From assembly GCA_028716245.1 (NCBI GenBank), contig JAQUQW010000002.1, forward strand, positions 293,346 to 357,345: a stretch of DNA of 64,000 nucleotides. Reading direction: 5' to 3'. Positions 44,012 to 64,000 of the stretch are shown piece by piece. How positions within the stretch are numbered: the stretch's first letter is position 1; each line of letters begins with the position of its first letter. Below the pieces are notes generated by a model. The model was not told the DNA's origin, made no database searches, and was given only the letters and a program-made list of their open reading frames with translations. A program made the translations under genes and the position numbers. Source of the stretch: Candidatus Omnitrophota bacterium. GTDB lineage: Bacteria > Omnitrophota > Gorgyraeia > Gygaellales > Profunditerraquicolaceae.

Positions 44012-44107
44012 CACCCCGCGCGGCACCTGGCGCTTATTTGAATTGCGCCAGTATTCGCCTTGTGGCGAAAATTGCGCGGGTGTTGTCTAGGTAGACAAGG
44101 AGAAATC
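44011..44107 (+). promoter_or_regulatory. palindromic leader element copy D (expanded, nested hairpins) upstream of clpC
   Basis: ACACCCCGCGC..[CTGGCGCttatttgaattGCGCCAG][CGCCttgtGGCG]..GCGCGGGTGT TTGTCTAggtTAGACAAGGAGaaatcATG. Confidence 0.6.
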
Positions 44108-47313: not shown

Positions 47314-47316
47314 AAA

Positions 47317-48072
47317 ATGATCGAGATACAAAACTTAACCAAAAAATTCGGTAATAACTTAGTTTTGGACCAGCTGAATTTAACGGTCCCCACCGGCCAA
47401 ACCTGCGTAATTATCGGCAGAAGCGGCTGCGGAAAATCAGTCCTGCTTAAACATATCGTCGGGCTGTTAAAACCGGACGAGGGCAAGGTTTTAGTTAACA
47501 GCAAAGAGGTGGGCGGTTTAAAAGAATTGGAATTAACCGCCCTGCGGGCCAAAATCAGCTTAGTATTCCAAGGCGGGGCTCTTTTTGATTCGATGAACGT
47601 TGCTGAAAATGTCGGGTTTAGCCTTTTTGAACATACGCATATTAATCGTGAAGAAATTTTAGCGCGGGTGGAGGAGTCTTTGTCCTTAGTAGATTTAGGC
47701 GGTATCGGTAATCTTATGCCTTCGGAGTTAAGCGGAGGAATGAAAAAACGCGTAGCTTTAGCGCGGGCAATTTGCATCAAGCCGGAAATTATCCTTTATG
47801 ACGAACCGACGACCGGAGTCGACCCGATTACCGCCGACAGTATCAATCGGCTTATCCGCTCGCTCCATGATAAATTAAAAGTCACTTCCTTTGTGGTCAC
47901 GCATGATATGCGCAGCGCCTACCACATCGCCAACAAGATTGCCATGCTGTATAAAGGGAAAATAATTTTAGAGGGTACTCCTGAAGAGATCCAGCATACT
48001 CAGTATCCGGTAGTGCACCAGTTTATTCATGGGCTCTCCAAGGGGCCGATAACTGAATCAATCGATACTTAA
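47317..48072 (+). CDS. mlaF: MlaF-family ABC ATPase
   Basis: Walker A GRSGCGKS, LSGGMKKR, Walker B ILYDEPT. Confidence 0.8.
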   Translation: MIEIQNLTKKFGNNLVLDQLNLTVPTGQTCVIIGRSGCGKSVLLKHIVGLLKPDEGKVLVNSKEVGGLKELELTALRAKISLVFQGGALFDSMNVAENVGFSLFEHTHINREEILARVEESLSLVDLGGIGNLMPSELSGGMKKRVALARAICIKPEIILYDEPTTGVDPITADSINRLIRSLHDKLKVTSFVVTHDMRSAYHIANKIAMLYKGKIILEGTPEEIQHTQYPVVHQFIHGLSKGPITESIDT

Positions 48073-48084
48073 ATGGAGGCTTAA

Positions 48085-48699
48085 ATGATATTCGGAAAAA
48101 CCAAATTAGAGCTAAGGGTGGGCGTCTTTGTTTTTATCGGCATGGTAATTTTAGTTATTTTTATATTGTCGATCGGCGGATTTAAAACCTGGAGTTCCGG
48201 GTACCGGATTAATGTTAACTTTAATTTTGTTAACGGGATAAAGGTGGGGGCGCCGGTGCGTTTTGCCGGAGTCGATGTAGGCGAGGTAAAAAGAATTAAG
48301 CTGGAGTTTATTCCCGAAGAAAGCCGTTCAAATGTGCGCCTGATAGTTTGGGTCAGGGATATTATCAAGATTCCCGTTGATTCCACTGTTTGGGTCAATA
48401 CCCTGGGGTTATTGGGTGAAAAATATATCGAGATAATGCCCGGCAAAGACTATGCCAACCCGATTAAAGAAAATGGATCCATGATCGGCGTTGATCCGTT
48501 GCCGATACACGCGATATTTAACCGGGCCGAAAGTATAATGCATAATCTGGATGACGGGCTTGCCCAGATCAGGAATAAAGAAGGCACATTAGGCAAGCTT
48601 ATTTATGACGATACGGTTTATAATGAATTGCAAGCGCTGGTTACCGATGTGCGCAAGAATCCCTGGAAGTTATTTTTCAGGACTAAAGAGAAAAAATAA
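48085..48699 (+). CDS. mlaD: MlaD-family MCE-domain protein
   Basis: N-terminal TM anchor plus MCE domain (..GIKVGAPVRFAGVDVGEV..). Confidence 0.75.
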   Translation: MIFGKTKLELRVGVFVFIGMVILVIFILSIGGFKTWSSGYRINVNFNFVNGIKVGAPVRFAGVDVGEVKRIKLEFIPEESRSNVRLIVWVRDIIKIPVDSTVWVNTLGLLGEKYIEIMPGKDYANPIKENGSMIGVDPLPIHAIFNRAESIMHNLDDGLAQIRNKEGTLGKLIYDDTVYNELQALVTDVRKNPWKLFFRTKEKK

Positions 48700-50093
48700 T
48701 GAGGACAAAGTCGGTTTTTAGCTGTTCAAATTGCGGGTATCAATCGCCGAAATGGCTGGGCAAGTGCCCGGATTGCAACAGCTGGAATTCTTTTAACGAA
48801 GAGGATTATGCCGTTCCTTCATCCGGGATCAAAGAAAGGGTCTCTTTGTATAAAGAAGGGCCGGTACTTTTAAGGGATGTGGTGGCTAAAGATGAAGACC
48901 GGTTAAAGACTAATATTATTGAGCTGGACCGGGTTTTAGGCGGCGGGATTGTCAAGGGCTCGGTGATCTTAATCGGCGGCGACCCCGGGGTAGGCAAATC
49001 GACCATCTCTTTACAGGTTTCCAACCATTTGACTAAGCAGGGGATCGGGGTGCTTTATGTCAGCGGCGAAGAAAGCGTGGCCCAGACTAAATTACGCGCC
49101 AGACGCTTGGGGGAATCGGGCGCGGATAATCTTTATATCGTCAATCAAACGGACTTATCTTTAATTGTCGAATACATTAAAAAATTAAAACCTCAGGTAG
49201 TCATCATCGATTCAATCCAGGTTATTTTTGATTCCGGGATCAGCTCTTCTCCCGGCAGCGTCAGCCAGGTGCGGGAATGCGCGGGGATCCTGACGCAATT
49301 AGCCAAAACTACCGGGACCTCGATTTTTATTATCGGCCATGTGACCAAAGAAGGGACTTTGGCTGGGCCGCGGGTTTTAGAGCATATCGTGGACACGGTG
49401 CTTTATTTTGAAGGGGACCGTTTCGCGATCTATAGAATACTGCGCGCGGTGAAAAACCGGTTTGGCTCAACCAATGAAATCGGCGTATTTGAAATGGGGG
49501 CGCAGGGTTTGGCGGAAGTAAGGAACCCGTCGGAAATATTCCTTTCGGAGCGGCCCAGCGATGTATCCGGGACGATCGTAACCTCGATTTTGGAAGGGAC
49601 GCGGCCGCTTTTGGTTGAGATCCAGTCGTTGGTTTCCAGGAGCAGTTTCGGTTATGCCCGCAGGCGGGCGCAGGGTTTTGATTTTAACCGCCTTTCTTTG
49701 CTGGTGGCGGTTTTAGAAAAACGCATGGGGCTGGCCCTTGAGGCAGAAGATATCTTTGTCAATGTCGCCGGAGGGATAAAAATCGAAGACCCGGCGGCGG
49801 ATTTAGCGGTATGCGCGGTGGTTGCCTCGAGTTTCCGGGAGCAGGTGGTTTTACCCCGGGCGGTAGTTTTAGGAGAGGTGGGGTTAAGCGGCGAGATTAG
49901 AAGTATTTCCCAGGTGCTGACGCGGATCAATGAAGCGCAAAAGCTGGGCTTTAAGCATTGCGTTTTACCTAAAAACAGCATTAAGAACCTTAAACTTAAG
50001 AGTTCGGATATGGAAATTATTCCCGTGTCTACTTTAAAGGAAGCTTTAGATATTATACTCGGGTTAGGGATTAAATTGGAGGCAAAGAAATGA
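48699..50093 (+). CDS. radA: DNA repair protein RadA/Sms
   Basis: C4 zinc finger CSNCGY..CPDC, RecA-like Walker [15 protein letters not shown] motif, Lon-like C-terminal domain. Confidence 0.9.
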
Positions 50094-51070
50094 ATTTATT
50101 ATTAGCGCGGCTTTTGTTTATTTTAGGCAGTATGGCGATTGGTTATCAGACGGTGGTAATTAATGGTTCCGGCTTAATCGGTTTGATAGTTGGCGCTTTA
50201 GTGGCATTAGCAATGATCGCCGCTGAAGCAGGGTTGCGTAAAGTTTCGGTAAGCGGTTTGTCCAGCGCGGTATTTGGATTAATCTTAGGCTTGATTATGG
50301 CCAAGCTGGTCGGAGATGCTTTTAGCATTGCTCCTATCGATCCGGTTGTGCTTTCCAGAATCAGGGTGGGGCTGACTTTGGTTTTTTGCTATCTGGGTAT
50401 GGTCATGGCCCTGCGCGGAAAAGATGAATTTAATGTCATCATTCCTTATGTGCGGCTGCGCCGGCAGGACCAGGCGCAAGATGTGGTGCTTTTAGATACC
50501 AGCGTGATTATCGACGGCAGGATTGTGGATCTTTGTAAAACTCGTTTTTTAGGGGGTAAAATTATCATCCCGAAATTCGTGCTGCGGGAATTACAGCAGA
50601 TCGCCGATTCTACCGATCCGATCAAACGCCAGCGGGGCAGGCGGGGTCTGGAGATACTGAATGTGATCCAAAATGAGCCGGGAATGGATATTACGATCCA
50701 TGAGCAGGATTTTACCGAGACCACTGAGGTGGATGCAAAACTGGTTTTGTTGGCTAAATTATTGGAAGCCAAAATCTTAACCGTTGATTTTAATTTAAAC
50801 CGCGTTGCCAGCATCCAGGGGATCAAAGTTTTAAATATAAATGAACTGGCTAACGCTTTAAAACCCGTGGTTTTTCCCGGGGAAGAGATGCGGATCAAGT
50901 TGATTAAAGAAGGTAAAGAGCATAACCAGGCGGTGGGTTATCTTGATGACGGGACGATGGTGGTAGTTGAGGATGCCCGCAAGTTACTTGGCCAGGAGGT
51001 TAAGGTTGTGGTGACTTCGGTCCTGCAAACTCAGGCCGGCAGGATGATCTTTACCAAGACAGAAAAATAA
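50090..51070 (+). CDS. yacL: membrane-anchored PIN plus TRAM domain protein (YacL-like)
   Basis: N-terminal TM helices, PIN acidic residues ([12 protein letters not shown]..), C-terminal TRAM. Confidence 0.75.
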
Positions 51071-51072
51071 TA

Positions 51073-51750
51073 ATGGTTAGCGCGATAATCCTGGCAGCTG
51101 GACGGGGAAAACGGCTTAATACGCCAGTACCGAAACCTTTAGTAAAAATTGGTAATTTGCCGGCAATAGTTTATTCTCTTAGGGCCTTAAACAGGCATCT
51201 GGATATCGCTGAGATTATCGTGGTGGTTAGCCCGGGCAATCAGCAGGCAATTACCAATGCGCTAAAGAAATATCCTTTTAAAAAAATAAAGGTTTTTGTT
51301 TTGGGCGGGGCGCGCCGGCAGGATTCGGTAGCTAATGGGCTCAAAGAAGTCAGCGTAAAAAGTGATTGGGTTTTAATCCATGATTCCGCGCGGCCGTTTA
51401 TTGACCGTAAATCGATTAGCAAGGTTATCTTCGCCGCTAAAAAAACCGGCGCAGCAATATTAGGGATACCGGTTAAAGCAACGATTAAGAGCGTCAAAGC
51501 GGGCTTGCTGGTTGATAGGACTGTGGACAGGGCCAATCTCTGGGAGATACAAACTCCACAGGTTTTTAAAAAAGAGCTTATTGTCCAGGCCTATAAAAAA
51601 TATTCTAAAAGCAATGTTACGGATGACGCTTCTTTGGTTGAGAAATTGGGGAAAAAGGTCCAGGTTGTTCCGGGGAGTGATGAAAATATCAAAATTACGA
51701 CTAGCGTTGACCTGTTATTGGCCGGGGAGATTGCCAGGAGGCGTTTATGA
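51073..51750 (+). CDS. ispD: 2-C-methyl-D-erythritol 4-phosphate cytidylyltransferase
   Basis: ILAAGRGKRL N-terminus and IspD-fold motifs. Confidence 0.85.
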   Translation: MVSAIILAAGRGKRLNTPVPKPLVKIGNLPAIVYSLRALNRHLDIAEIIVVVSPGNQQAITNALKKYPFKKIKVFVLGGARRQDSVANGLKEVSVKSDWVLIHDSARPFIDRKSISKVIFAAKKTGAAILGIPVKATIKSVKAGLLVDRTVDRANLWEIQTPQVFKKELIVQAYKKYSKSNVTDDASLVEKLGKKVQVVPGSDENIKITTSVDLLLAGEIARRRL

Positions 51751-52232
51751 TGCAATTTAAAGTCGGAATAGGTTATGATATCCACCGTTTAATTACGGGC
51801 AGGCCGTTATTTTTAGGCGCTGTGGAGATTCCTTATATTAAAGGACTCTTGGGGCATTCCGACGGTGACGCATTGATCCACGCGCTTTGCGACGCGCTAT
51901 TGGGTGCCTTAGCGCTTGGCGATATCGGCGAACATTTTCCGGATACGGATCCTAAATATCAGGGTATTGCCAGTAGTAAGCTGCTTGAGGCCGTTAAGGG
52001 ATTAGTGGACCAGAGCGGTTATCAAATCAATAATCTGGATGTTGTCATTATCGCCCAGGAGCCCAAGCTTGTGCCGTTTAAGCAACAGATGAAAGAAAAG
52101 ATTTCCGCGCTTCTTGGTATCGGCCAGGAGATTGTAAACATAAAAGCAAAAACAAATGAAGGGCTGGACGCGGTAGGAAATCGGGAGGCAATTGCCTGTT
52201 ACGCGGCAGCTTCTTTGGCAAAGGGGGTATAA
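51747..52232 (+). CDS. ispF: 2-C-methyl-D-erythritol 2,4-cyclodiphosphate synthase
   Basis: [15 protein letters not shown] zinc-binding motifs. Confidence 0.9.
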
Positions 52233-52234
52233 AC

Positions 52235-52918
52235 ATGTTCTCCATAATTATAAATATATTGATTTTAATCGCGGCGCTTTATTTAATTAAGTTTATGCTT
52301 ATTTCCGTGATTTTTTACGCTGATATTAGGGCGGCGCAGAAAAGGGATCCGGCGGCAAAAAGTTTTATCGAGGTGATTTTGCTTTATCCCGGGCTGCACG
52401 CTTTGATTTATTACCGGGTCGCCCATTTCTTCTATCAAACACATTTATTTTTTCTGGCGCGCCTTTTATCCCAGGTTGCCCGGTTTTCTACCGGCATTGA
52501 AATCCATCCGGGGGCCAAAATCGGCAAGCGGTTTTTTATCGACCATGGATTAGGCGTGGTGATCGGAGAGACCGCGATTGTCGGAGATGATGTTTTGCTT
52601 TATCAGGGCACAACCTTGGGCGGGACCGGAATCATACAGGGAAAACGCCATCCTACTGTCGGCAATAATGTGGTGATCGGGGCCGGCGCAAAAGTTTTAG
52701 GCAATATTACCATCGGCGACAATTCTTATATCGGGGCAAACGCGGTAGTGGTCAAAGATGTTCCGCCAAATTCCACGGTCGTCGGTGTTCCCGGAAGGAT
52801 CACCAAGCAGGACGGTAAAAAAATGGATGTCAGCTTAGACCACGCGCGGATGCTGGACCCGATTATGCAGTCAATCGAAGAGCTGCAGGATAGAATTAAA
52901 AATTTGGAAAAGAAGTAG
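52235..52918 (+). CDS. cysE: serine O-acetyltransferase (hexapeptide repeat)
   Basis: Left-handed beta-helix repeats (..[14 protein letters not shown]..). Confidence 0.8.
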
Positions 52919-52923
52919 AGTGC

Positions 52924-54324
52924 ATGCCTATCTTTATATATAATTCCCTCACCAGAAAAAAAGAAGAGTTTGTTCCGATAAAGGCTCCGCAGGTAAAAAT
53001 GTATACTTGCGGAGTTACGGTTTATGACGCCTGCCATATTGGCCATGCCCGCAGTTTATTTATTTTCGATTTGATCCGCAGGTATTTAAAATACCGCGGT
53101 TTTGACGTGAGTTTTACGCGCAATATCACCGATATCGACGATAAGATAATTAACCGGGCTAATGAGCTTAAAGTTGACTGGCAGGAGTTGGTTAGTAAAT
53201 ATATCGCCAGTTACAATCAGGATCTAGAAAGCCTGGGGATAGAAAAAGCGGATTTTGAGCCGCGGGCAACCGAAAATATTACCGATATGATTGAATATAT
53301 TAAAAAGCTGGTGGATAAAGGCCTGGCTTATGAATCCGCCGGCGATGTTTATTTTGATGTGCGTAAATTTGCCGGATACGGGAAATTATCCGGCCAAAGC
53401 ATCGACCAGATGGAGACCGGGGTGAGGATCGGCCCGTCGGAGTTAAAGCATGACCCGTTGGATTTTGCCCTTTGGAAACGCTCTAAGGAAAATGAGCCTT
53501 GCTGGCCCAGCATTTTTGGGCCGGGCAGGCCGGGCTGGCATATCGAGTGTTCGGTGATGTCGCAGAAGTTTTTAAAAACCGAAACTTTGGATATCCACGC
53601 CGGAGGCAGGGATTTGATTTTTCCGCACCATGAGAATGAATTGGCGCAGAGTGAATCCTATAGCGGTAAGCCATTTGCTAAATATTGGATACACCATGGA
53701 CTGCTTACGATCAACACGCAAAAGATGTCTAAGTCGCTGGGGAATTTTATCACGATTAAGGATTTTATCGCCAAATACCATAATCCCGAGCTGTTGAAGT
53801 TTTTCTTTTTGTCCGCCCACTATGCCCACCCAATCGATTACAGCGACGCAAAAATCGAGGAGGCCAGGCAAGCATTGCAGAGGATTAGTATTTTTATGGA
53901 TAAGGCCAAGGCAGTCAAGCCGGGTTTGGCGCTAACCCTGTTAAAGAGACATTCTAAAGAGGTGGCTAAGTTAAAAAATAAATTTACCGCTTCTTTAGAT
54001 GATGATTTTAACACGCCGGAAGCCTTGGCTTGTGTTTTTGAGCTGGTGAACCTGGCGAATAAAAATATCGGGAAGGCGGATCTTGTTTTTAGCGCTCAAG
54101 TTGTTTTAAAAGAGATGCTTGAGATCCTCGGCATTACGCTTAAGGCGGTAAGAATCGACACCCAGATCAGCGAAGATGAAATTAAGTCTAAGATTCAGAG
54201 TAGGTCGGATGCTAAAAAATCCAAGGACTACGCGCTGGCCGATAAAATCAGAAAAGAGCTGGAAGAAAAAGGGGTAATTCTCGAGGATACCAAGAACGGC
54301 GCAACTTGGAGAAGGAAGTTGTAG
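52924..54324 (+). CDS. cysS: cysteine--tRNA ligase
   Basis: HIGHA and KMSKS class I motifs. Confidence 0.9.
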   Translation: MPIFIYNSLTRKKEEFVPIKAPQVKMYTCGVTVYDACHIGHARSLFIFDLIRRYLKYRGFDVSFTRNITDIDDKIINRANELKVDWQELVSKYIASYNQDLESLGIEKADFEPRATENITDMIEYIKKLVDKGLAYESAGDVYFDVRKFAGYGKLSGQSIDQMETGVRIGPSELKHDPLDFALWKRSKENEPCWPSIFGPGRPGWHIECSVMSQKFLKTETLDIHAGGRDLIFPHHENELAQSESYSGKPFAKYWIHHGLLTINTQKMSKSLGNFITIKDFIAKYHNPELLKFFFLSAHYAHPIDYSDAKIEEARQALQRISIFMDKAKAVKPGLALTLLKRHSKEVAKLKNKFTASLDDDFNTPEALACVFELVNLANKNIGKADLVFSAQVVLKEMLEILGITLKAVRIDTQISEDEIKSKIQSRSDAKKSKDYALADKIRKELEEKGVILEDTKNGATWRRKL

Positions 54325-54365
54325 TGAATAGTTTGATTTGAAGTAGGGGATTGGAGATTCTCATT

Positions 54366-54400
54366 AAAAAGCCCATAACTTGCGTTACGGGCTTTTTAAT
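54366..54400 (+). terminator. rho-independent terminator after cysS
   Basis: GCCCATAAC ttgc GTTACGGGC followed by TTTTT. Confidence 0.65.
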
Positions 54401-54429
54401 TTGTTAGATGCTATGTTAAACTGCCAAGC

Positions 54430-55400
54430 TTTTCAAGGAATGGTATGATACCTTCATTAAGTGAGTTCAACCATTTCGAAAGGAGGAAAGCATGGCCTAC
54501 AATTCACAGGACTATGACATATTTATCGGAATCGATGTTGACCAAAAAAGCTTCTCGTTTACCGTCAAGGACCACGAACAGATGAACCGTTCACACAGAA
54601 TACCCGCAGATCCAGAGAACCTTTACCGCCATATAGAAAATACCTATAATGGCAAAAGAGTCATCTGCGCCTATGAAACCGGAGGGAGTGGTTATTATCT
54701 TCATGATTATTTAACCTCCGCTACGCGCCAACGGTTAGATTTGCTGCTTGCGGATTTAGAGTATGCACGTAACCAGCAATTAAAGGTCATTAACGAATTA
54801 AGGGCAATAGCGTTAAATAATCCCTGCCTTACGGCTAATGTGCATTGCTTGCGTTCTATCCCTGGTATAGGTTTATTACGGCAATAACCATATTGGCAAA
54901 TATCGGCGATACAGCTAAGCAACCCCAGAGAGCTGGGGGCGTTTATCGGGCTTGTGCCTCGTGAACATTCCACCGGAGACAAAATATCCAAAGGCTCTAT
55001 CACCCACATGGGCGATGTTTTCCTGCGCTCTCTGCTGATTGAGGCCAGTTGGGTAATTATCCGTAAGGATACACGTATGCGGCAATTCTATGATCGCATT
55101 CGCTCCAGGCATCATCCGCATATTGCCGCTCGCAAGGCCATTGTCGCGGTAGCGCGTAAATTAACCTTGATTATTTATAGGGTCTTGAAAGAACAGCGTG
55201 ACTATATAGCTTAATGATAAGAAATAGTGTTAGAGATAGGACCTTTAAGTAACGCTTGCCTTGGGGGACGCCTCGTGGTCAAAATCAGAGTCAATGTTTT
55301 TAGACTCGTTGTTAGATAGAGACCCCTGGGGCCTTAAACGCAAAATCAAATAGTGTGAACCCATGTGGGTTGCCACGTATAACAGAGAGTTAAAGGGTTC
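54430..55400 (+). mobile_element. IS110-family insertion sequence remnant (approximate bounds)
   Basis: Pseudogene above plus a downstream hairpin GTGAACCCATGTGGGTTGCCAC. No terminal inverted repeats, which is usual for IS110. Confidence 0.5.
54492..55214 (+). pseudogene. IS110-family transposase, degraded (at least 2 frameshifts)
   Basis: N-terminal DEDD domain (IFIGIDVDQKSFSF) in ORF 54492..54887. An ..ILANIGDTAKQ.. segment sits in a third frame. The C-terminal Transposase_20 region (ELGAFIGLVPREHSTGDK..) is in ORF 54954..55214. Confidence 0.75.
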
Positions 55401-55522
55401 TAGATTTAACACGAGGAGCTAGAATAAGAAAAGCTTGACACTTTACATAACAGATTTTGGCCTTTTCTGCGTCAGTTGCGGTAGGAAGAAAATAATAATG
55501 ACGCAAGAAAGGAGAGAAAGGA

Positions 55523-56548
55523 ATGAAGAATTCGATAGGCAAAGAATATATCAATTTCTTGAATGGAATCAAATCGCGCATTGTTACAGCGCGGATTCAG
55601 GCGATTAGGTCGGTCAATAAAGAGCTTATAAAGTTATATTGGGATATCGGCAGAACTATCGTCGAGAGGCAGAAAAAATATAAGTGGGGAGATGCGGTAG
55701 TTGAAAGGTTTGCCTTTGATTTAGCCGCAGAATTTAATGGTAGGGCGGGTTTTTCCGTGCAAAATTTATGGCGGATGAGGCTTTTATATCTTGAGTACAA
55801 AGATAGCCTGAAACTCGCACAGCTTGTGCGAGAAATTCCCTGGGGACAAAATATTGTCATAATGCAGATGGTTAAAGATATCAAAGAGCGAGAGTATTAT
55901 ATTCGCGCTACAGCGGAAATGGGATGGAGCCGCAATGTGCTTCTCAACCAGATAAAAGCCGGAGTTTATACCTTCTACTTGAAACAGAAAACCCATAATT
56001 TTCCTAAAGTCCTTCCCGGCTATCTTGCTGAACAGGCAGATGAATCCATAAAAAGCGTTTATAACCTTGATTTTCTTGATATCACAAAATCATTGGTTGA
56101 ACGGGAGTTAGAGCGCCGCCTTGTTGAAAGAATTAAGCGCTTTATGCTTGAACTGGGTAAAGGATTTTCATTTCTTGGTGATCAATACCGCCTAATATTG
56201 GGGAATAATGAATATTTTGTTGATCTTTTATTTTTTAACCGTCTATTAAAATGCCTTGTGGCAGTTGAGTTTAAAACCGGTAAGTTTGAGCCCGAATATG
56301 CCGGGAAGATAGATTTTTATCTTCACCTATTGGATGAACAAGTAAAACTGAAAGATGAAAATCCGTCAATAGGCATTATTCTATGCGCGGCTAAAGACAA
56401 TATTGTGGTTGAGTATGCTTTGCGTAGTACCAAAAAGCCCGTGGGGGTTGCCGAATACTGTCTTACGAATAAACTGCCTAAATATTTGGCCAGAAAACTT
56501 CCTGATGCCAGCGCGTTGAAATTATCGATACAAGAGGAATTGAAGTAG
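55523..56548 (+). CDS. YhcG/DUF1016 family PDDEXK nuclease
   Basis: N-terminal YhcG-type helical domain and C-terminal restriction-endonuclease-like core (..VDLLFFNRLLKCLVAVEFKTGKFEPEYAGKIDFY..). Confidence 0.75.
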   Translation: MKNSIGKEYINFLNGIKSRIVTARIQAIRSVNKELIKLYWDIGRTIVERQKKYKWGDAVVERFAFDLAAEFNGRAGFSVQNLWRMRLLYLEYKDSLKLAQLVREIPWGQNIVIMQMVKDIKEREYYIRATAEMGWSRNVLLNQIKAGVYTFYLKQKTHNFPKVLPGYLAEQADESIKSVYNLDFLDITKSLVERELERRLVERIKRFMLELGKGFSFLGDQYRLILGNNEYFVDLLFFNRLLKCLVAVEFKTGKFEPEYAGKIDFYLHLLDEQVKLKDENPSIGIILCAAKDNIVVEYALRSTKKPVGVAEYCLTNKLPKYLARKLPDASALKLSIQEELK

Positions 56549-56673
56549 CTATGCTCTCTAGTGCCATGGACTCTACATCTTTTTCTATTGAGCTAATTGG
56601 CCTTAGGCGGTATAATCAAAAATCAGGGGCGTTTCTGGAGTTTTTATTGGAAGTAAAAAAAGGAGGACTTTAG

Positions 56674-57018
56674 ATGATGCACTTCTTGGTAAGATGGGGA
56701 ATTAACGCGCTGTCGATTTTTATTGTCGCGCACATTGTCAGGGGCATCGAGGTTTCAAGTACCGCCACTGTCCTGGTGATTGCTTTGGTCTTGGGGATCA
56801 TTAACGCTTTCTTGAGGCCTTTGATTATTCTGGTTACGCTGCCGATCAATATTATTACCTTAGGGGTATTTACCCTTTTTATCAACGGAGCTCTTTTCCT
56901 TTTGGTGTCTAAGATTGTCAAAGGTTTCGTGATTACGGGTTTCTGGACAGCTTTCTGGGGGTATATCCTTTTTAGCATCATTAGTTTCTTGTTAAGCCTG
57001 TTAGTTTTTTCTGTTTAA
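56674..57018 (+). CDS. 4-TM membrane protein, Phage_holin_4_2 / YvlD (DUF360) family
   Basis: ..IVAHIVRGIEVSS..LGIINAFLRPLIILVTLPINIITLGVFTLFINGALFLL.. matches the family pattern. Confidence 0.65.
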   Translation: MMHFLVRWGINALSIFIVAHIVRGIEVSSTATVLVIALVLGIINAFLRPLIILVTLPINIITLGVFTLFINGALFLLVSKIVKGFVITGFWTAFWGYILFSIISFLLSLLVFSV

Positions 57019-57023
57019 TTAAG

Positions 57024-57053
57024 TGATAAATAGAAACGGTCCCATTATTTCTA
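57024..57053 (+). repeat. motif AAATAGAAACGGTCCCATTATTT copy 1 (left flank of patatin gene)
   Basis: 26 nt identical to the copy at 62869..62893; inverted partner at 58103..58118. Confidence 0.7.
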
Positions 57054-57064
57054 GAGGGAGGATT

Positions 57065-58099
57065 ATGCTTTATCATTTTAAAAATCTGGTTTTTGAAGGC
57101 GGGGGCGTTAAGGGGATGGCGTATTCCGGGGCGATGGAGATATTGGCTGAGAAAGGCATCTTGCAGAAAATCGAGCGGGTGGGAGGGACATCGGCCGGGG
57201 CGATTAATTCCGTTTTAGTCGGTTTGAATTATTCGGTTGATGATATGAAAGAAGTCCTTTGGAAGCTAAACTTTAATGATTTAATGGATAACCAGTGGGG
57301 GATAATCGAAGGCCTGCCGAGGCTGGCGGGAAAATACGGCTGGTATAAAGGGGATTTTTTCAGGAAGTGGATTGGAGAAATAATCCGCAGGAAAACCGGA
57401 AGCAGTGAGGCGAGTTTTGCCGATATCTCCGCGCAGAAAGAGCAAAAGGGGTTTAAGGATTTGTATGTTATCGGGACGAATCTTTCCACGCATTTTAGCG
57501 AGGTTTTTTCAAATGAAAAGACACCAGATATGCCGGTTGCCGATGCTGTGAGGATCTCTATGTCGATCCCGTTGTTTTTCGCGAGCAAACGCGCAGGCAG
57601 GCGCAGGGATGTTTATGTTGACGGGGGAGTTTTGGCCAATTACCCGGTTAAACTTTTTGACCGTGAAAAATACGTTCAAGAGAACAAAAGAAGCACGGAT
57701 TATTATGAGGCGCATAATAAGAAGCTGAAAGAGCAGGGGATTAAGATCAGTAAGTACGTTTACAACCAGGAAACACTGGGATTCAGGCTGGATTCTCGGG
57801 AGGAAATTGGTGTCTTCCGCGACCAAAAAGAACCGGCGCACCATAAAATCAAGAGTTTTGTCGCTTACGCCAAAGGGTTAGTCCAGACGATAATCGACCA
57901 TCAGCTTAATCTGCATCTGCACAGTGATGATTGGCAGAGGACGATTTATATCGATGCTTCGGCGGCCAAGACAACGGAGTTTTACTTGTCAGATGAGAAA
58001 AAGGCGGCCTTGGTTGAAGCCGGCCGCAAAGGCGCCAGAGAATATTTTGAGTGGTTTGATAAGGGGAATTCCATTAATAAGGTAGTTGCTACTCTTTAA
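57065..58099 (+). CDS. patatin-like phospholipase
   Basis: Oxyanion hole FEGGGVKG, nucleophile elbow GTSAG, Asp in DGG(V) near residue 200. Confidence 0.85.
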   Translation: MLYHFKNLVFEGGGVKGMAYSGAMEILAEKGILQKIERVGGTSAGAINSVLVGLNYSVDDMKEVLWKLNFNDLMDNQWGIIEGLPRLAGKYGWYKGDFFRKWIGEIIRRKTGSSEASFADISAQKEQKGFKDLYVIGTNLSTHFSEVFSNEKTPDMPVADAVRISMSIPLFFASKRAGRRRDVYVDGGVLANYPVKLFDREKYVQENKRSTDYYEAHNKKLKEQGIKISKYVYNQETLGFRLDSREEIGVFRDQKEPAHHKIKSFVAYAKGLVQTIIDHQLNLHLHSDDWQRTIYIDASAAKTTEFYLSDEKKAALVEAGRKGAREYFEWFDKGNSINKVVATL

Positions 58100-58102
58100 A
58101 AC

Positions 58103-58118
58103 TAGGGACGGTTCTATT
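58103..58118 (-). repeat. motif copy 2, inverted (TAGGGACGGTTCTATT), right flank of patatin gene
   Basis: Reverse complement AATAGAACCGTCCCTA. Confidence 0.65.
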
Positions 58119-58133
58119 AAGGAGTTTTATGAA

Positions 58134-58157
58134 AAATAGAACTGTCCCCTTTATTTT
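58134..58157 (+). repeat. motif copy 3 (AAATAGAACTGTCCCCTTTATTTT), inside the 18-aa mini-ORF upstream of tmk
   Basis: Read directly. Confidence 0.6.
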
Positions 58158-58188
58158 AGTGTTCTTTGCCTCCCGCCTGTGGTAAAAT

Positions 58189-58205
58189 GGTCCCTGTCCC
58201 TATTT
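58189..58205 (-). repeat. motif copy 4, inverted and degenerate (GGTCCCTGTCCCTATTT)
   Basis: Reverse complement AAATAGGGACAGGGACC. Confidence 0.45.
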
Positions 58206-58216
58206 AAAGGAAGGCT

Positions 58217-58825
58217 ATGAGAGGAAAATTTATTACATTTGAAGGGTCTGAAGGTTGCGGGAAGAGCACGCAGTCGAAGATGCTTTTTGGGTATCTTAAG
58301 GCCAAGGGGTTAAAGGCAATTTATCTGCGTGAGCCTGGCGGCGTCAAGGTAAGCGAGATGATTAGAGAGATATTGCTTAATCCTAAGAACAAGATATCGC
58401 CGGCGGCTGAGACTTTACTTTATATGGCTGCCCGCGCCCAGGTGGTTGAAGAGATTATTAAACCCGCGCTGATTGCCGGAAGAATAGTTGTCTGCGACCG
58501 GTTCATGGATTCGACGATTGCTTATCAAGGTTATGGTTTAGGCATCGATATCAAACTGATTAAAGTTATTGGTAATTTTGCCACCCAAGGCATCGCGCCG
58601 GATCTGACCATTTTTTTAGACCTGCCGATTAAAAGCGGGCTGAAACATCGGGATAACTGCAAGGACCGCATCGAGCAGCGCTCGGTTAGTTATCATGAAA
58701 AGGTAAGAAGAGGTTATCTTGCGCTGGCCAAGAATGAACCGCGAAGGATTAAAATCGTCAAAGTCCAGGAAGATAAATTTAAGACGCAAGAGAAGATCAG
58801 GGAGATCGTCAATGCGCTTGGCTGA
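58217..58825 (+). CDS. tmk: thymidylate kinase
   Basis: P-loop FEGSEGCGKST, DRF motif, LID region. Confidence 0.9.
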   Translation: MRGKFITFEGSEGCGKSTQSKMLFGYLKAKGLKAIYLREPGGVKVSEMIREILLNPKNKISPAAETLLYMAARAQVVEEIIKPALIAGRIVVCDRFMDSTIAYQGYGLGIDIKLIKVIGNFATQGIAPDLTIFLDLPIKSGLKHRDNCKDRIEQRSVSYHEKVRRGYLALAKNEPRRIKIVKVQEDKFKTQEKIREIVNALG

Positions 58826-59771
58826 TATTTTAGGGCACCAAAAACCTTTAGCGATAATTAACGCTTATATCCAAGGCTCCGGTTTTTCCGGAGGATTTAT
58901 TTTTAGCGGGCCGGAGGGGATCGGCAAGCGGATGGTCGCTAAAATGGCTGCCCAAAAATTAAACTGTACGGCTCAAACTGATAAACCCTGCGGCCTCTGT
59001 GATTCCTGCCGCAAGATCGAAAATTCAGGGCATCCGGATTTGCATATTATCGAAAACGGCGAAGCGCAAATAAAGATCGAAGATATCCGCGGTATTTTGC
59101 GGGAGGCAAGTTTTAAGCCGTATGAAGGGGCAATGAAGGTTTTTATTATCGATAACGCCCATAAGCTTAATACTGAAGCGGCAAACTCTTTGCTGAAAAT
59201 CCTGGAGGAGCCGCCTAAGAGCACGTTGATTATTTTAATCACGCATAAACCGCAGAATATTATCAAGACTGTGCTTAGCCGTTGCAGGATGATCAAATTT
59301 CCTTCTTTGGTCAGGGCGGAACTTGAAGAGGTTTTGATTAAAAATTATTCATTGGATAAGCTGAGCGCGCATTTTCTGGCCTATTATGCCGAAGGCAGAT
59401 TAGGCTTGGCTTTGAAGCTCAAGGATTCTTTGCAATTGCGGGAGAAGAACAAAATATTCGATTCTTTTGTGTTGTCCGCAAAGCCGCTGGATCGAAATTT
59501 AATGGGGCAAACTAAAGAGCAGCTGCGCTTTTCCTTAAATATTCTTGCTTCCTGGTTCAGGGATCTGTATCTGCTGAAAGCAGGATTGCGGGATAAAGAA
59601 ATAATCCATTTAGACCGCCAGGAGGATTTATTAAAATTAATACCTAAATATTCATTTAAGCAGCTTGACGATATTATGGCTACGATCTCAGAGAGCACCT
59701 TGTATTTGGAAAGAAATATTAACAGCAAATTACTTTTGCACAACTTAGGAGCGCAACTATGGAAGGCATGA
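58812..59771 (+). CDS. holB: DNA polymerase III subunit delta'
   Basis: AAA+-like fold with GPEGIGKR and Cys zinc module CGLCDSC. Start ATG 58812 overlaps the tmk stop. Confidence 0.85.
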   Translation: MRLADILGHQKPLAIINAYIQGSGFSGGFIFSGPEGIGKRMVAKMAAQKLNCTAQTDKPCGLCDSCRKIENSGHPDLHIIENGEAQIKIEDIRGILREASFKPYEGAMKVFIIDNAHKLNTEAANSLLKILEEPPKSTLIILITHKPQNIIKTVLSRCRMIKFPSLVRAELEEVLIKNYSLDKLSAHFLAYYAEGRLGLALKLKDSLQLREKNKIFDSFVLSAKPLDRNLMGQTKEQLRFSLNILASWFRDLYLLKAGLRDKEIIHLDRQEDLLKLIPKYSFKQLDDIMATISESTLYLERNINSKLLLHNLGAQLWKA

Positions 59772-60571
59772 TTTTAGTCCAACTGAGGAATTCCGGCATG
59801 GTCCAGCTTTATCAGGCGGGAAATTTAGTTTTAAAAGCCGGGGATTGCGTGATTGTCGAGCATGACCGGGGTTTGGATTACGGAAGCGTGGTTTTGCCGG
59901 GGCATGCCCGCTGCTGCGCCGTCGAAGAAGGCGGCGCAAAAGAGCCGCCGAAAAAGATAATCCGCCTGGCCAGGGAAAGCGACTTAAAACAGATCGAAGA
60001 TAACGTGATCAAAGCTAAGGAAGCGTATAGGGTTTGCGAGAAAAAGATCCTGGAGCATAAATTGGATATGAAGCTGGTTAAGGCGGAGTATTCTTTTGAC
60101 CGGACCAAAATTTTATTTTACTTTACCTCCGACGGCAGGGTGGATTTTCGTAACCTGGTAAAGGATTTGGCGAAAATGTTTAAGGCGCGCATTGAATTAA
60201 GGCAGATCGGGGTCAGGGATGAGGCCCGGCTTTTTGGCGGATATGGCTCATGCGGCCGCGAGCTTTGCTGCAAAAAATTCCTGAAAGATTTTGAGCCGGT
60301 AACCATCAAAATGGCCAAGGAAGAAGGCCTGCCGTTAAACCCTCCTAAAATTTCCGGTTTATGCGGGCGCCTGATGTGTTGCCTTTCGTATGAATATGAA
60401 ACTTATAAGCTGCTTTCAAAAGGCCTGCCGCACGAAGGGGAGCATGTTAGCACCCCGCAGGGCAAAGGCAAGGTGATCAACATTAATGTTTTTAAACGGG
60501 TAGTCACTGTCGAACTGGAAGAAGGCGGATACCTCGAGGTAAGTTATAAAGAAAAAGAGCATGGCAAATAA
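59759..60571 (+). CDS. ricT: PSP1 C-terminal domain protein (YaaT/RicT-like)
   Basis: ..YSFDRTKILFYFTSDGRVDFRNLVKDLAKMFKARIELRQIGVRDEA..GSCGRELCC. Confidence 0.85.
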   Translation: MEGMILVQLRNSGMVQLYQAGNLVLKAGDCVIVEHDRGLDYGSVVLPGHARCCAVEEGGAKEPPKKIIRLARESDLKQIEDNVIKAKEAYRVCEKKILEHKLDMKLVKAEYSFDRTKILFYFTSDGRVDFRNLVKDLAKMFKARIELRQIGVRDEARLFGGYGSCGRELCCKKFLKDFEPVTIKMAKEEGLPLNPPKISGLCGRLMCCLSYEYETYKLLSKGLPHEGEHVSTPQGKGKVININVFKRVVTVELEEGGYLEVSYKEKEHGK

Positions 60572-62096
60572 ATTTTATATTACTACTCCCATCTATTACG
60601 TGAATGCTTCTCCACATATCGGCCATTCATACACTAATATTGCCGCAGATACTTTGGCCCGCTATAACCGTAATATCCTGGGAAAAGAGAATGTTTGGTT
60701 TCTTACCGGAACCGATGAACACGGACAGAAGATCAAAAAAGCAGCGGATGAGGCCAAGCTTTCCCCGATTGAATTTGTCGATAAAGTAGTGATTCAATTC
60801 CGGGATTTATGGAAGAAACTTGAAATATCCAACGACGATTTTATTCGTACAACCCAAGATAGACATATTAAATTCGTGCAAAAAGCGCTGCAGATCGTCT
60901 ATGGTCAAGGGGATATTTACGAGGGTAAATACGAGGGTTGGTATTGCACTCCTTGTGAAACATTCTGGCCGCTTTCGCAGATCACGGATAATCTTTGCCC
61001 GGATTGCCACCGGCCGCTGGAAAAAATCAGTGAAACTAATTTTTTCTTTAAATTATCAAAATACCAGGATTGGTTGATTAAATATATCAAAGATACTGAT
61101 GAAAATCCGGAGCGGATCCATTATATCCAGCCGGTTTCCAGAAGGAATGAAGTTTTAGGGTTTTTAGAGAATAATAAATTAGAGGATCTTTGTATATCCA
61201 GGCCGGTTGAGCGGCTCAGCTGGGGCATACCTTTGCCGTTTAGCCCAAAGCATGTTACTTATGTCTGGTTTGACGCCTTAATTAATTATATCAGCGCGGT
61301 TGGTGAATTTGACAGTAAGGATATTTATCACTCCGACTGGTGGGATAAGGATGTTAAGGTGGTGCAGCTTTTGGGTAAAGATATTTTAAGACATCACGCG
61401 ATTTACTGGCCGATTATGCTGGAGGCTTTAGGGATCAGGCAGCCGGATACGATTTTTGCCCATGGCTGGTGGATGATCAATGAAGATAAGATGTCAAAAT
61501 CGCGCGGTAATGTGGTTAATCCGGTGGAGATGGCCGATAAATTCGGCATTGACGTTTACCGCTATTTTCTCCTTCGCGATGTGCCGTTTGGTTTAGACGG
61601 TAATTTTTCCGAAGAAGCGATAATCAAGAGATTTAACGGTGATCTAGCCAATGATTTAGGCAATCTTATTTATCGTACGCTGACGATGATTGAGAAATAC
61701 TACGCGGGAAAAATCCCGGATTTGAATATTGAGAATACCATTTATGACCAGAGCGGGGAGGCTATTAAAAGTAAATTGGCGGATTTAGGCAAAGAAGTTT
61801 CTCTGCCGCTTAGCTGGGGAAATGATTTTAGCCTGGCGCTGGAAAAAATTTGGGAGGTTATAGGAATAACGAATAAATATGTTGAAGAGACTAAGCCCTG
61901 GAATTTGGTGAAAGAAGGTAAAGATGAAGAGCTTAAAAGGTTCATTTCTTTATTGGTCCAGGCGATTCGAAAGATTGGCCGGGAAATCGCCCCGTTTATG
62001 CCAAAAACCGCGGAGTCGATTATCTTGCAATTGGGCGGCACCGAGATTAAAAAAGGCGCTCCTTTATTCCCGCGTATTGAAATTAAAAAGAAATAA
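60561..62096 (+). CDS. metG: methionine--tRNA ligase (short form, no C-terminal tRNA-binding domain)
   Basis: HIGH (PHIGHSY), KMSKS, zinc knuckle CTPCE..CPDC. Confidence 0.9.
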   Translation: MANKFYITTPIYYVNASPHIGHSYTNIAADTLARYNRNILGKENVWFLTGTDEHGQKIKKAADEAKLSPIEFVDKVVIQFRDLWKKLEISNDDFIRTTQDRHIKFVQKALQIVYGQGDIYEGKYEGWYCTPCETFWPLSQITDNLCPDCHRPLEKISETNFFFKLSKYQDWLIKYIKDTDENPERIHYIQPVSRRNEVLGFLENNKLEDLCISRPVERLSWGIPLPFSPKHVTYVWFDALINYISAVGEFDSKDIYHSDWWDKDVKVVQLLGKDILRHHAIYWPIMLEALGIRQPDTIFAHGWWMINEDKMSKSRGNVVNPVEMADKFGIDVYRYFLLRDVPFGLDGNFSEEAIIKRFNGDLANDLGNLIYRTLTMIEKYYAGKIPDLNIENTIYDQSGEAIKSKLADLGKEVSLPLSWGNDFSLALEKIWEVIGITNKYVEETKPWNLVKEGKDEELKRFISLLVQAIRKIGREIAPFMPKTAESIILQLGGTEIKKGAPLFPRIEIKKK

Positions 62097-62107
62097 GTTC
62101 TCGTTTT

Positions 62108-62872
62108 ATGTTAATTGACACGCATTGCCATCTTGATTTTCCTCCCTTTGACCCGGACCGCGACGCGGTTATCCAGCGGGCAAAAGCAGCGGGAATCGCT
62201 TATTTTATCAATATCGGTTCAACATTAGAATCTTCAGCTGCTTCCTGCGAATTGGCGCAAAAGTATGCGGAGGTTTATGCCAGCGTGGGAGTGCATCCGC
62301 ATGATGCCGATACTTTTGATCCTCAGGCGGAAAATAAATTAAAAAGCCTGGCGCGGAATAATAAGGTTGTCGCCATCGGTGAAACCGGTTTGGATTATTA
62401 CCGCAACTTATCCAGTCAAGATAACCAAAAACAGGCATTTATTAAACAGATTGCGTTAGCCAAAGATTTAAAGTTGCCGCTGGTGATCCACTGCCGGCAG
62501 GCGGAGAAAGATACGCTGCAGATTTTAAAAGCCGCATTGCCGCTTCGGGCGGTGGTGCATTGTTTTTCCGGGGATGAAAGTTTTTTGCGGGAATGTTTAA
62601 GCTGCGGATTTTTTATTTCATTTACCTGCAATATTACTTATAAAAAAGCTCAAGGCCTAAGGGATATGGTTAGCCTGACTCCGCTGGATAGGTTAATGCT
62701 TGAAACTGACGCGCCGTATTTGTCGCCGGAAGGTTTGCGCGGAAAACGCAATGAGCCGTTTCAGATAAAATTATTGGCAGAAGAGGTCAGCCGGATTAAG
62801 GGAGTAAGCTTTGAAGAGATTGCGAATAGGACAACTCGAAACGCCAAAGAATTCTTTAATTTAAAGGAATAA
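62108..62872 (+). CDS. tatD: TatD family metal-dependent DNase/hydrolase
   Basis: DTHCHLD N-terminus and conserved His/Glu/Asp metal ligands. Confidence 0.85.
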   Translation: MLIDTHCHLDFPPFDPDRDAVIQRAKAAGIAYFINIGSTLESSAASCELAQKYAEVYASVGVHPHDADTFDPQAENKLKSLARNNKVVAIGETGLDYYRNLSSQDNQKQAFIKQIALAKDLKLPLVIHCRQAEKDTLQILKAALPLRAVVHCFSGDESFLRECLSCGFFISFTCNITYKKAQGLRDMVSLTPLDRLMLETDAPYLSPEGLRGKRNEPFQIKLLAEEVSRIKGVSFEEIANRTTRNAKEFFNLKE

Positions 62873-62893
62873 ATAGAAACGGTCCCATTATTT
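62869..62893 (+). repeat. motif copy 5 (ATAAATAGAAACGGTCCCATTATTT) directly upstream of the DUF362 gene
   Basis: Identical over 26 nt to 57024..57049. Confidence 0.7.
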
Positions 62894-62896
62894 AGA

Positions 62897-64000
62897 ATGG
62901 ATGCTAAAGTTTCCGTAGTTAAATGCGCTGGGTATGAACCGGCAATAGTTGAGCAAGCGATAAGGGATACAGTTAATCTCTTAGGCGGGGTCACTAATTT
63001 TATTAAGCCCGGCTCCAGCGTGTTGGTTAAGCCCAATCTTTTAATGTCTAAGGGGCCGGAGTGCGGCATTACCACCCATCCGGAAGTAGTCAGGGCGGTA
63101 ATTCATATATTAAAGGAAATAAACTGCAAGATTATTATCGGTGATGGCCCAAGTGTCTGGGGTAAGTATATTGAAAATGTTGACCAGGTATATGATCTTA
63201 CCGGCATGAGGAAAGTTTGCCAGGAAGAGGATGTGCGCCTGGTTACTTTTGACAAGCGCAGGATGCGTGCTAAATTTCCGCTGACAACTTGGCTTGATGA
63301 ATGCGATCATTTAATCAGCCTGCCTAAATTTAAAACTCATGAATTTACTTTGCTTACCGGAGCAATTAAGAATCTTTTCGGCCTGGTTTCCGGCACCTAT
63401 AAAACCGAGCTGCATAAAAATTATTTTGAGCCGGCGGAATTTTCCAAGATCCTGGTGGATATATACCAGGAGGCTAGGCCCGCCCTGACGATTATCGATG
63501 GGATATTAGCCATGGAAGGGGATGGACCGGCAACCAACGGAAAACTTCGGCCGCTTGGCCTTTTATTAGGCGGTTCGGATTGCGTGGCTCTGGATACGGT
63601 GATGGCTAAGATTATGGGGATTACCAATCAGGAGGTTTTAACGACAAAAGAGGCAGCCCGGCGCGGCTTAGGGGAAAATCAGCTCAGCAGAATTAAGATT
63701 GAGGGGGAGGATATCGCTAAATTAAATATCCGGCCGTTTATCCTGCCGGTAACTTCGGCAAAAATAAGCAAGTTACCAACCGCGGTTAGAAAGATACTTA
63801 AATCCCTGATCAGGTATTATCCTTATTGTTTGAGCCCAAAATGCATCCGCTGCGGCCACTGCGTTAAGGTTTGCCCGCGCCAGTGTATTACTTTTAAAAA
63901 AAGCCGCATTCATTTTGATTACAAAAAATGTATCGCCTGTTTCTGTTGCCAGGAGAGCTGCCCGGAAGCAGCCATCGGAATAAAGAAAAGTATGTTGGCT
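62897..64000 (+). CDS. DUF362 domain protein with C-terminal 4Fe-4S ferredoxin-type motifs (3' end outside window)
   Basis: ORF open to the window end, so absent from the ORF track. MDAKVSVVKCAGYEP.. then CIRCGHCVKVCP and CIACFCCQESCP. Confidence 0.6.
   Translation, partial: MDAKVSVVKCAGYEPAIVEQAIRDTVNLLGGVTNFIKPGSSVLVKPNLLMSKGPECGITTHPEVVRAVIHILKEINCKIIIGDGPSVWGKYIENVDQVYDLTGMRKVCQEEDVRLVTFDKRRMRAKFPLTTWLDECDHLISLPKFKTHEFTLLTGAIKNLFGLVSGTYKTELHKNYFEPAEFSKILVDIYQEARPALTIIDGILAMEGDGPATNGKLRPLGLLLGGSDCVALDTVMAKIMGITNQEVLTTKEAARRGLGENQLSRIKIEGEDIAKLNIRPFILPVTSAKISKLPTAVRKILKSLIRYYPYCLSPKCIRCGHCVKVCPRQCITFKKSRIHFDYKKCIACFCCQESCPEAAIGIKKSMLA

Follow-up and report, generated by a model that had tools for sequence, protein, structure and literature searches.

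We analysed a 64,000-nucleotide (nt) stretch of a Candidatus Omnitrophota genome (contig JAQUQW010000002.1), here called the window, in which a short motif lies on both sides of a patatin-like phospholipase gene and again directly before a DUF362 gene. The motif is very probably one arm of a short dispersed repeat family of Omnitrophota that is associated with a domesticated REP-associated tyrosine transposase (RAYT; REP, repetitive extragenic palindrome), or "TIRYT" in Di Nocera's terms. The repeats would then form a REPIN/RAYT-type (or "TIRtron") system (REPIN, REP doublet forming a hairpin; TIR, terminal inverted repeat), a known kind of element in a phylum for which our literature searches returned no paper on such repeats. 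Two inverted arms, GGGGACGGTTCT[A/C]T and A[T/G]AGAACCGTCCCC, with A-rich and T-rich outer flanks, would make up a REPIN-like hairpin, and single arms would be singlets or half-deleted hairpins. An initial annotation of the window had instead proposed either the binding site of a transcription factor or the ends of a cassette that delivered the patatin gene between cysS and tmk. Relatives were compared with the window as stretches of at most 22 kb each, and the family was studied in 200 related Omnitrophota loci, which bear our own numbers (L001 and so on); the closest relative is L004.

Motif copies in the window

The motif strings first reported at 57031, 58103–58118 and 58134–58157 were recovered from the window as TAGAAACGGTCCCATTATTT (57031–57050), TAGGGACGGTTCTATT and AAATAGAACTGTCCCCTTTATTTT, respectively. 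The exact repeat before the DUF362 gene, initially counted as a 26-mer, is also real, at a length of 25 nt: ATAAATAGAAACGGTCCCATTATTT occurs exactly twice in the window, at 57026–57050 and 62869–62893, and not once in 100 dinucleotide-preserving shuffles. Pattern scans of the 64 kb for the core AATAGAANNGTCCC / AATAGAANNNGTCCC without mismatch returned three intergenic sites only, and the first 56 kb gave no further good copy of the motif.

A covariance model of the family (R1, described below) found a sole intact copy in the window, at 58093–58162 (66.8 bits, E = 7.5e-21). This element sits between the patatin stop codon (58099) and the tmk start (58217) and is kept before tmk in L001. It is composed of the left flank AAAACTA, a 5′ arm GGGACGGTTCTATT (58105–58118), a 16-nt loop, a 3′ arm AATAGAACTGTCCC (58135–58148) and the tail CTTTATTTT, and its arms pair locally over 14 bp, including one G·U pair (−20.1 kcal/mol, z = −3.35). 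Because the arm downstream of patatin pairs with 58135–58148, it is half of a self-contained element; copies of the motif do stand on both sides of the patatin gene, as initially described, but the downstream one belongs to a hairpin of its own (58105–58148). The consensus terminator scan did not call this hairpin because its loop limit is 8 nt, and Rfam at the gathering threshold reported tRNAs only in the window and nothing in five relatives.

The two 25-mers are single 3′-type arms. The first, separated from the patatin ATG by 14 nt, shows no significant folding (z = −0.86), and R1 does not score it as a full element; in L001 a variant arm, AAAAATAGAAACGGTTCCATTGTTT, precedes the patatin gene, though the gene upstream differs from that in the window. 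The second extends across the tatD stop codon to within 3 nt of the DUF362 ATG and has no fold (z = −0.40). Two further copies had been placed before tmk. That at 58134–58157 stands, as the 3′ half of the hairpin, whereas 58189–58205 (GGTCCCTGTCCCTATTT) is only a degenerate remnant, in direct and not inverted orientation, whose reverse complement has only AAATAG in common with the motif; on the + strand it resembles decayed ends of 3′ arms. The degenerate remnants as a whole (58181–58205) overlap TGTGGTAAAAT, an extended −10-like box, and are lacking in L001; the second of them, TGTCCCTATTT, fits the ends of arms that belong to another repeat family, seen in L015 and L183. A 5′-arm-like sequence at 56624–56636 may be a chance match.

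An 18-codon open reading frame (ORF), MKNRTVPFILVFFASRLW, begins in the loop of the intact hairpin (58130–58186), behind an AAGGAG box, and L001 retains it with a single synonymous substitution. We take it for a probable by-product of the repeat and not for a gene, since similar peptides in other copies follow from the DNA repeat.

A dispersed palindromic repeat family in Omnitrophota

Across the relatives the element has the form (A-rich)GGGGACGGTTCT[A/C]T, a loop of 3–30 nt and A[T/G]AGAACCGTCCCC(TTTATTT), and it is dispersed and palindromic. Its arms were found as inverted pairs, as single arms and as tandem copies, almost all of them in the short spacers that lead from a stop codon to the next gene. 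Hairpins of the GGGAC..GTCCC type numbered 34 in the loci of 17 of 83 relatives, at unrelated positions. Model R1 was built from an alignment (A1) of 22 copies, in which the lower stem is invariant and the upper stem carries compensatory changes; it retrieved about 25 copies with E < 1e-13 in 11 of the 83 loci, and close relatives therefore differ in carrying the element. The 105 family hairpins are nearly all intergenic; hairpins lie 0–30 nt past a stop codon and often occupy the entire spacer, with CTAG, ATAG or AAAG adjoining the stem and an arm spacing of 3 to 30 nt or more.

Variants are genome-specific, such as GGGGACGTTTCT in L028 and GGGACCGTTTCT in L008 and in the single arms of the window; three L028 copies have common loops and two L004 copies are identical. 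The 23-nt core of the window's 25-mer recurs exactly in four other contigs (L008, L103, L124, L132), and the identity of the two window copies thus goes back to a variant that recurs in the family and not to any common regulation of patatin and DUF362. A metagenome scan with TAGAAMYGKYCCCWTTATTT matched at least 120 contigs, and among the matches listed were 169 paired arms, 84 single arms and tandem direct copies; abundance was counted over contigs. The flanks of the seed matches contain about 0.08 further sites per kb. As in the window, single arms stand right after a stop codon (in 5′-arm orientation) or right before a start codon. None of 2.9 million viral contigs had a match to the motif. 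The motif is a dispersed high-copy repeat, which is essentially the outcome that the initial annotation had named as speaking against its proposals.

These distributions bear first on the idea of an operator through which one transcription factor would co-regulate patatin, tmk and DUF362. Three copies do lie directly upstream of three start codons of the window, two of them identical. In most relatives, however, the DUF362 and tmk orthologues lack the motif and often any spacer in which it could lie. Neither a conserved site nor a fixed geometry emerges, as the spacing of pairs runs from 3 to more than 30 nt and their orientation is variable, and copies come as close as 3 nt to an ATG or run into stop codons. 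The same sequence accompanies unrelated genes in the at least 120 contigs, after genes as often as before, and is linked to a transposase (below). We therefore give a small patatin/tmk/DUF362 regulon scarcely any chance, which removes a false lead.

Intrinsic bidirectional terminators, their sequence shared through common descent or gene conversion and no transposase involved, would account for hairpins that follow stop codons so closely, with an A-tract before and a T-rich tail after. Their folds are stable (−20 to −38 kcal/mol), and hairpins are somewhat over-represented between convergent genes (11 of 77, versus 6.8% of gene pairs); overall, the gene-orientation classes of the hairpins are near background and the depletion in divergent spacers is weak. 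Against terminators alone stands the invariant 12-nt stem, which is shared by unrelated sites and by genomes whose MetG proteins are only 70% identical. Single arms are conserved though unable to fold, tandem direct copies exist, and arms are strictly associated with RAYT genes. Elements also lie between genes that are otherwise translationally coupled, one of them being read through in frame (in L004), and many tails are poor U-tracts. We consider plain terminators very unlikely; terminator activity as a secondary role is compatible with RAYT-associated repeats.

In Neisseria and Haemophilus, inverted pairs of DNA-uptake signals double as terminators. An uptake-signal-like function would fit a conserved 12–14-mer with lineage-specific variants, frequent inverted pairs behind genes and no copies in viral contigs. 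Unlike uptake sequences, the motif is almost exclusively intergenic; its density in the window is low, and the link to a Y1 transposase explains the family without uptake. The chance of this alternative is practically negligible.

Two other candidates were tried and rejected. Inspection of the arm by eye as a sigma-70, sigma-54 or extracytoplasmic function (ECF) promoter gave a spacing of about 8 nt between −35-like and −10-like parts. For an integron attC site, the core sites do not match and the copies are almost exclusively intergenic.

Association with a REP-associated tyrosine transposase

Among the loci fetched with the motif, L135, L163, L201 and L202 have inward-facing arms about 760 nt apart around an ORF of 224–237 amino acids (aa), and L195 is similar; across the motif-fetched loci and L004 the arm-flanked gene encodes about 185–237 aa. 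Searches with tblastn added RAYT copies in L103 (variant A), L164, L004 and L011. In L004 and L011 the gene follows alr and lies between two whole hairpins. Arms or hairpins are present on both sides in eight of nine RAYT loci (L004, L011, L103, L135, L163, L195, L201, L202), and in the ninth, L164, on the upstream side only. The transposase gene and the repeats share a contig in L004, L011, L103 and others.

The five ORFs scanned (L135, L163, L195, L201, L202) matched PF01797 (Y1_Tnp) above its cutoff (E = 2e-9 to 3e-17). Scores for NF047646, "REP-associated tyrosine transposase", were 56.8–81.1 bits against a cutoff of 80, one ORF lying above it and two within 0.5 bit. An alignment of nine RAYT sequences contains invariant HUH and Y-x-E-x-NPVRA motifs. 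A search of PDB with a single transposase sequence gave no match, and a profile of the nine ORFs had 4ER8 (TnpArep) as its sole PDB match (E = 1.6e-5). In the motif-fetched RAYT loci a promoter-like leader comes after the upstream arm, and the downstream arm contains the stop codon. The leader TTAGTTAGATT...TGCGTCAATTGTAGTAAAAGGAGG is conserved before RAYT in five loci, and blastn found it only there. In L183 a more distant RAYT lies between arms of another family (GGGACAGCGACTATTT), that of the L015 hairpin.

Filled and empty sites

In 55 of 66 loci there is no gap between tatD and DUF362, which overlap or form a fusion. Their boundary is filled by a hairpin in L004, L008, L009 and L029, in different registers, and is empty in most other relatives, which have an ATGA overlap or an in-frame fusion there. 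L008 carries a complete hairpin whose flanks are the same as in the window, and the window lacks 41 nt of it (the 5′ arm and the loop); by this comparison the copy at 62869 is an element with one half deleted. Beyond alr, the spacer is likewise filled in five loci and empty in about 40. A possible target-site duplication was seen in one imperfect case, CCATGA / CCAATGA in L029; the flanks are otherwise A/T-rich and palindromic.

At two places the element itself is translated in frame: at L004:12309–12380 as an N-terminal extension of DUF362 (MRIKGDGSIRRFYEEENRPLY...), and at L011:10785–10834 as the C-terminus of a truncated RAYT (...GDGSLKRFYEEENRPL). Among the empty sites, the in-frame fusion of tatD with the DUF362/Fe-S gene, without a stop codon, is found in L005, L007 and L012–L016 and the ATGA overlap in L010, L011 and L018.

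Relation to known repeat systems

REPINs flank single-copy RAYTs (Bertels & Rainey 2011, PMC3116915; Bertels et al. 2017, PMC5581495). The Omnitrophota family resembles this system in its short, multi-copy extragenic repeats, which form inverted doublets folding to hairpins and also occur as singlets and clusters, in its genome-specific consensus and in the position of copies behind genes. Relatives and metagenome contigs encode a RAYT-type Y1/HUH transposase, and the repeats flank its gene as inverted copies. The single Omnitrophota arm differs in not being a palindromic unit and in having no clear GTAG tag; a CGTC, the alternative REP tag, does occur inside the arm, but paired and not free. 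The host phylum is Omnitrophota and not Proteobacteria, and the transposase, whose NCBIfam scores reach the cutoff or fall just short of it, is distant from E. coli TnpArep, which only the profile reached.

TIRtrons are tyrosine transposases flanked by non-self-complementary TIRs, several of which share GGGGWSAS (Di Nocera, De Gregorio & Rocco 2013, PMC3733652). The TIRs form moderately abundant repeat families that occur as singles, dimers, and groups or clusters (PMC3733652). Judged on its repeats by this published description, the Omnitrophota family qualifies: the flanking arrangement and the dispersed family are alike, and some TIRs extend into the 3′ end of the gene. The arm head GGGGACGG matches GGGGWSAS at seven of eight positions, departing at position 7; the arm heads of sister families are GGGGACAG (L054) and GGGACAGC (L015, L183). 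Published examples come from Acidobacteria, Stenotrophomonas and others, not from Omnitrophota. Because its arms are not self-palindromic and lack a clear GTAG tag, the family fits the TIRtron description better than that of classical REPs.

The likeness to miniature inverted-repeat transposable elements (MITEs) that had been suggested initially holds in so far as the motif is an arm of a non-autonomous, transposase-associated dispersed repeat; it does not extend to its being the end of a cassette. MITEs and other small intergenic palindromes (Correia/NEMIS, ERIC and RUP elements, Rickettsia palindromic elements and MIRUs) rely on DDE transposases, with target-site duplications, or else no enzyme is known for them. 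The Omnitrophota elements share with them a small size, a lack of autonomy, hairpin formation, insertion at gene boundaries or inside operons, and occasional in-frame translation (the DUF362 of L004, the RAYT of L011). They differ in being paired with a Y1/HUH enzyme and in showing no consistent duplication.

Several points weigh against the assignment to a RAYT-associated system. No transposition event, target-site duplication or cleavage site is established, and the filled and empty sites compared gave no consistent target duplication. A single arm, non-palindromic and without a clear GTAG tag, is not a classical REP. No RAYT gene was found within the 64-kb window by tblastn; we infer its presence in this genome from L004, where the gene is found some 4.3 kb past the position corresponding to the end of the window. 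The window holds one intact element and two or three single arms per 64 kb, all in its last 7.5 kb. In alignment A1 pairing holds in 99.1% of stem cells and covariation in 5 of 15 pairs, values that are inflated because the hairpin sets were chosen for complementarity. Sense-strand mismatches are G·U rather than A·C in 11 versus 5 cases, a difference that is not significant and is weak evidence for a function at the RNA level.

The patatin gene and the variable cysS–tmk junction

The genes around the patatin gene are listed with the motif copies in Table 1. The order cysS-tmk-holB-PSP1-metG-tatD-DUF362 is near-universal in about 80 Omnitrophota loci (tblastn), drawn from GTDB species representatives by a MetG scan; the last gene is a DUF362/4Fe-4S gene by Pfam. 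The distance from cysS to tmk is at most 350 nt in 47 of 58 loci (median 172 nt). In the window the patatin gene is not directly between the two: a decayed IS110-family transposase, a YhcG/DUF1016 gene and a Phage_holin_4_2 gene stand between cysS and patatin.

Table 1. Motif copies and genes in the last part of the window
Feature	Position	Strand	Basis
5.3-kb segment without counterpart in the closest relative, L004	52915..58215	+	nt alignment
cysS	52924–54324	+	Pfam
Terminator hairpin	54363–54400		
Decayed IS110-family transposase, N-terminal 131-aa ORF	54492–54887	+	NF033542, E = 6e-8
Decayed IS110-family transposase, C-terminal Transposase_20 fragment	54954–55214	+	PF02371, E = 3e-8
YhcG/DUF1016 PDDEXK nuclease	55523–56548	+	Pfam; matches PADLOC candidate PDC-S02
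Weak 5′-arm-like sequence GGGGCGTTTCT, lacking one base, before the holin-family gene	56624..56636	+	relaxed pattern; weak match
Phage_holin_4_2-family membrane protein	56674–57018	+	Pfam
Single 3′-type arm (REP singlet), variant A, AAATAGAAACGGTCCCATTATTT, without partner arm	57026..57050	+	exact 25-mer
Patatin-like phospholipase, 344 aa	57065..58099	+	PF01734, E = 1.7e-32
Intact REPIN-like hairpin element, variant B	58093..58162	.	model R1 and fold
Degenerate arm remnants in the tmk leader, TAAAATGGTCCC then TGTCCCTATTT	58181..58205	+	one-mismatch core match 58183–58194
Core gene run tmk-holB-PSP1-metG-tatD, then DUF362 from 62897	58217..62872	+	Pfam
Single 3′-type arm, variant A, remnant of a full hairpin	62869..62893	+	exact 25-mer

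That the patatin gene is an insertion between core genes was borne out. None of the 80 species-representative loci has patatin, YhcG, the holin-family gene or the IS110 remnant at the junction (tblastn), and 11 loci have other cysS–tmk inserts of 0.5–4.4 kb, for example with a DUF3800 gene, a Zeta-toxin-like gene or a Gp49-like gene. L004 aligns to 46979–52914 and 58216–64000 at 89% nt identity, but not across 52915–58215, a segment that comprises a cysS allele, a terminator hairpin, the IS110 remnant, YhcG/DUF1016, Phage_holin_4_2, patatin and the hairpin element. Only L001, a JGI contig with a 96% identical patatin, has the arrangement of the window; it differs in a truncated radA-like ORF upstream and in an additional Bro-N gene that separates patatin from the hairpin. 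Judged by these comparisons, patatin is a lineage-specific accessory gene in a variable cysS–tmk junction. Its homologues point to Omnitrophota, and it resembles lipases of cyclic oligonucleotide-based antiphage signalling systems (CBASS) weakly, with a score below the cutoff. Exact-protein look-ups returned no record for the window's patatin, with either of two start choices, or for its tmk product.

Nothing shows that the repeats delivered the patatin gene. The arm upstream of patatin is of the 3′ type and the one downstream of the 5′ type; they therefore face outward, like the inner arms of two separate elements. The downstream arm is tied up in its own hairpin, in L001 a Bro-N gene intervenes between patatin and that hairpin, and patatin homologues elsewhere (L002 and L003, 74–77% identity) carry no arms. 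These observations do not support the initially proposed cassette.

A related explanation makes the arms the ends of a cargo unit: a former RAYT locus upstream of tmk, in the order arm, leader, RAYT and hairpin, in which patatin (with Bro-N in L001) replaced the transposase, or a unit mobilized as a cassette. Patatin is bracketed in the same manner as the RAYT of L004, by the 3′ arm of a left element and the 5′ arm of a right hairpin, and the homology between L001 and the window begins directly after the left arm. Inside the bracket, before the Bro-N domain gene, L001:1635–1690 resembles a diverged RAYT-type leader (TTAGTTAGATT..GCGTC..GTAAGGAGG), and inward-facing arms bracket non-transposase genes in L193 (FRG domain) and L168 (AAA ATPase) as well. 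The leader similarity in L001 is, however, under the blastn-short threshold, and tblastn found no trace of a RAYT gene at the locus. The left arm is of variant A and the right hairpin of variant B, whereas the RAYT loci inspected have the same variant on both sides; the armless homologues in L002 and L003 count against it too, and arms are so common at gene boundaries that bracketing is expected by chance. We regard such a cargo unit as distinctly unlikely. The more general notion that arm-bracketed intervals are former RAYT slots, in which the transposase was exchanged for accessory genes, seems unlikely to us; patatin in the window, patatin and Bro-N in L001, and the FRG and AAA-ATPase genes of other contigs may be examples. 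If it were true, the Omnitrophota repeats would be a gene-cassette exchange or mobilization system that creates hotspots such as the cysS–tmk junction.

Two further observations concern this segment. The cysS protein of the window shares only 56% identity with its L004 counterpart, against 96% for MetG, but 85% with the one in L010, and the replacement therefore took in cysS itself, a core gene. The IS110 remnant is followed by some 300 nt of non-coding DNA (55215–55522), which could contain the remains of its guide RNA.

Possible mechanism and significance

On the preferred reading, that of RAYT-associated repeats, the transposase would act on single-stranded hairpin DNA and so spread or maintain the hairpins, and copies would persist only in the tiny spacers at gene ends. 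Once transcribed, the hairpins may act as 3′ stem-loops, either as terminators or as mRNA stabilizers. The repeats could also serve as break or recombination points, of which the start of the L001/window homology at the left arm and the half-deletion at 62869 would be examples, and so contribute to the variability of the cysS–tmk junction. Patatin, an accessory gene of this variable junction, lies between two of the repeat elements.

This reading would add an uncultivated phylum to the known range of RAYT-associated repeat systems, nearly all work on which has concerned Proteobacteria. Since the arms are not self-palindromic, like those of the little-studied GGGGWSAS TIRtrons, they could show how REPIN-like populations originate from the TIRs of a transposase. 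For annotation, the elements would explain odd spacers, in-frame terminal extensions (the DUF362 of L004, the RAYT of L011) and rearrangement breakpoints in metagenome-assembled genomes of Omnitrophota.

Other repeats

A second dispersed repeat, GC-rich and about 165 nt long, has the inverted termini AGCGGGTGGCAAGCCTTG ... CAAGGCTTGACAGGACCCGC and lies at 37937–38105 (+) in the window. Rfam gave no match to it even at E ≤ 1. It is also present at L004:7477–7657, L046:6550–6741, L075:7498 and 21369, and in L080, L013 and L055; it occupies the cysS–tmk spacer of many relatives and is found elsewhere in both orientations. The window further contains an 82-nt direct repeat, 84% identical, near tRNA-Ser genes (2498–2579 and 3376–3457), and a 33-nt inverted pair, 91% complementary, whose arms (4846–4878 and 44070–44102) lie 39 kb apart.

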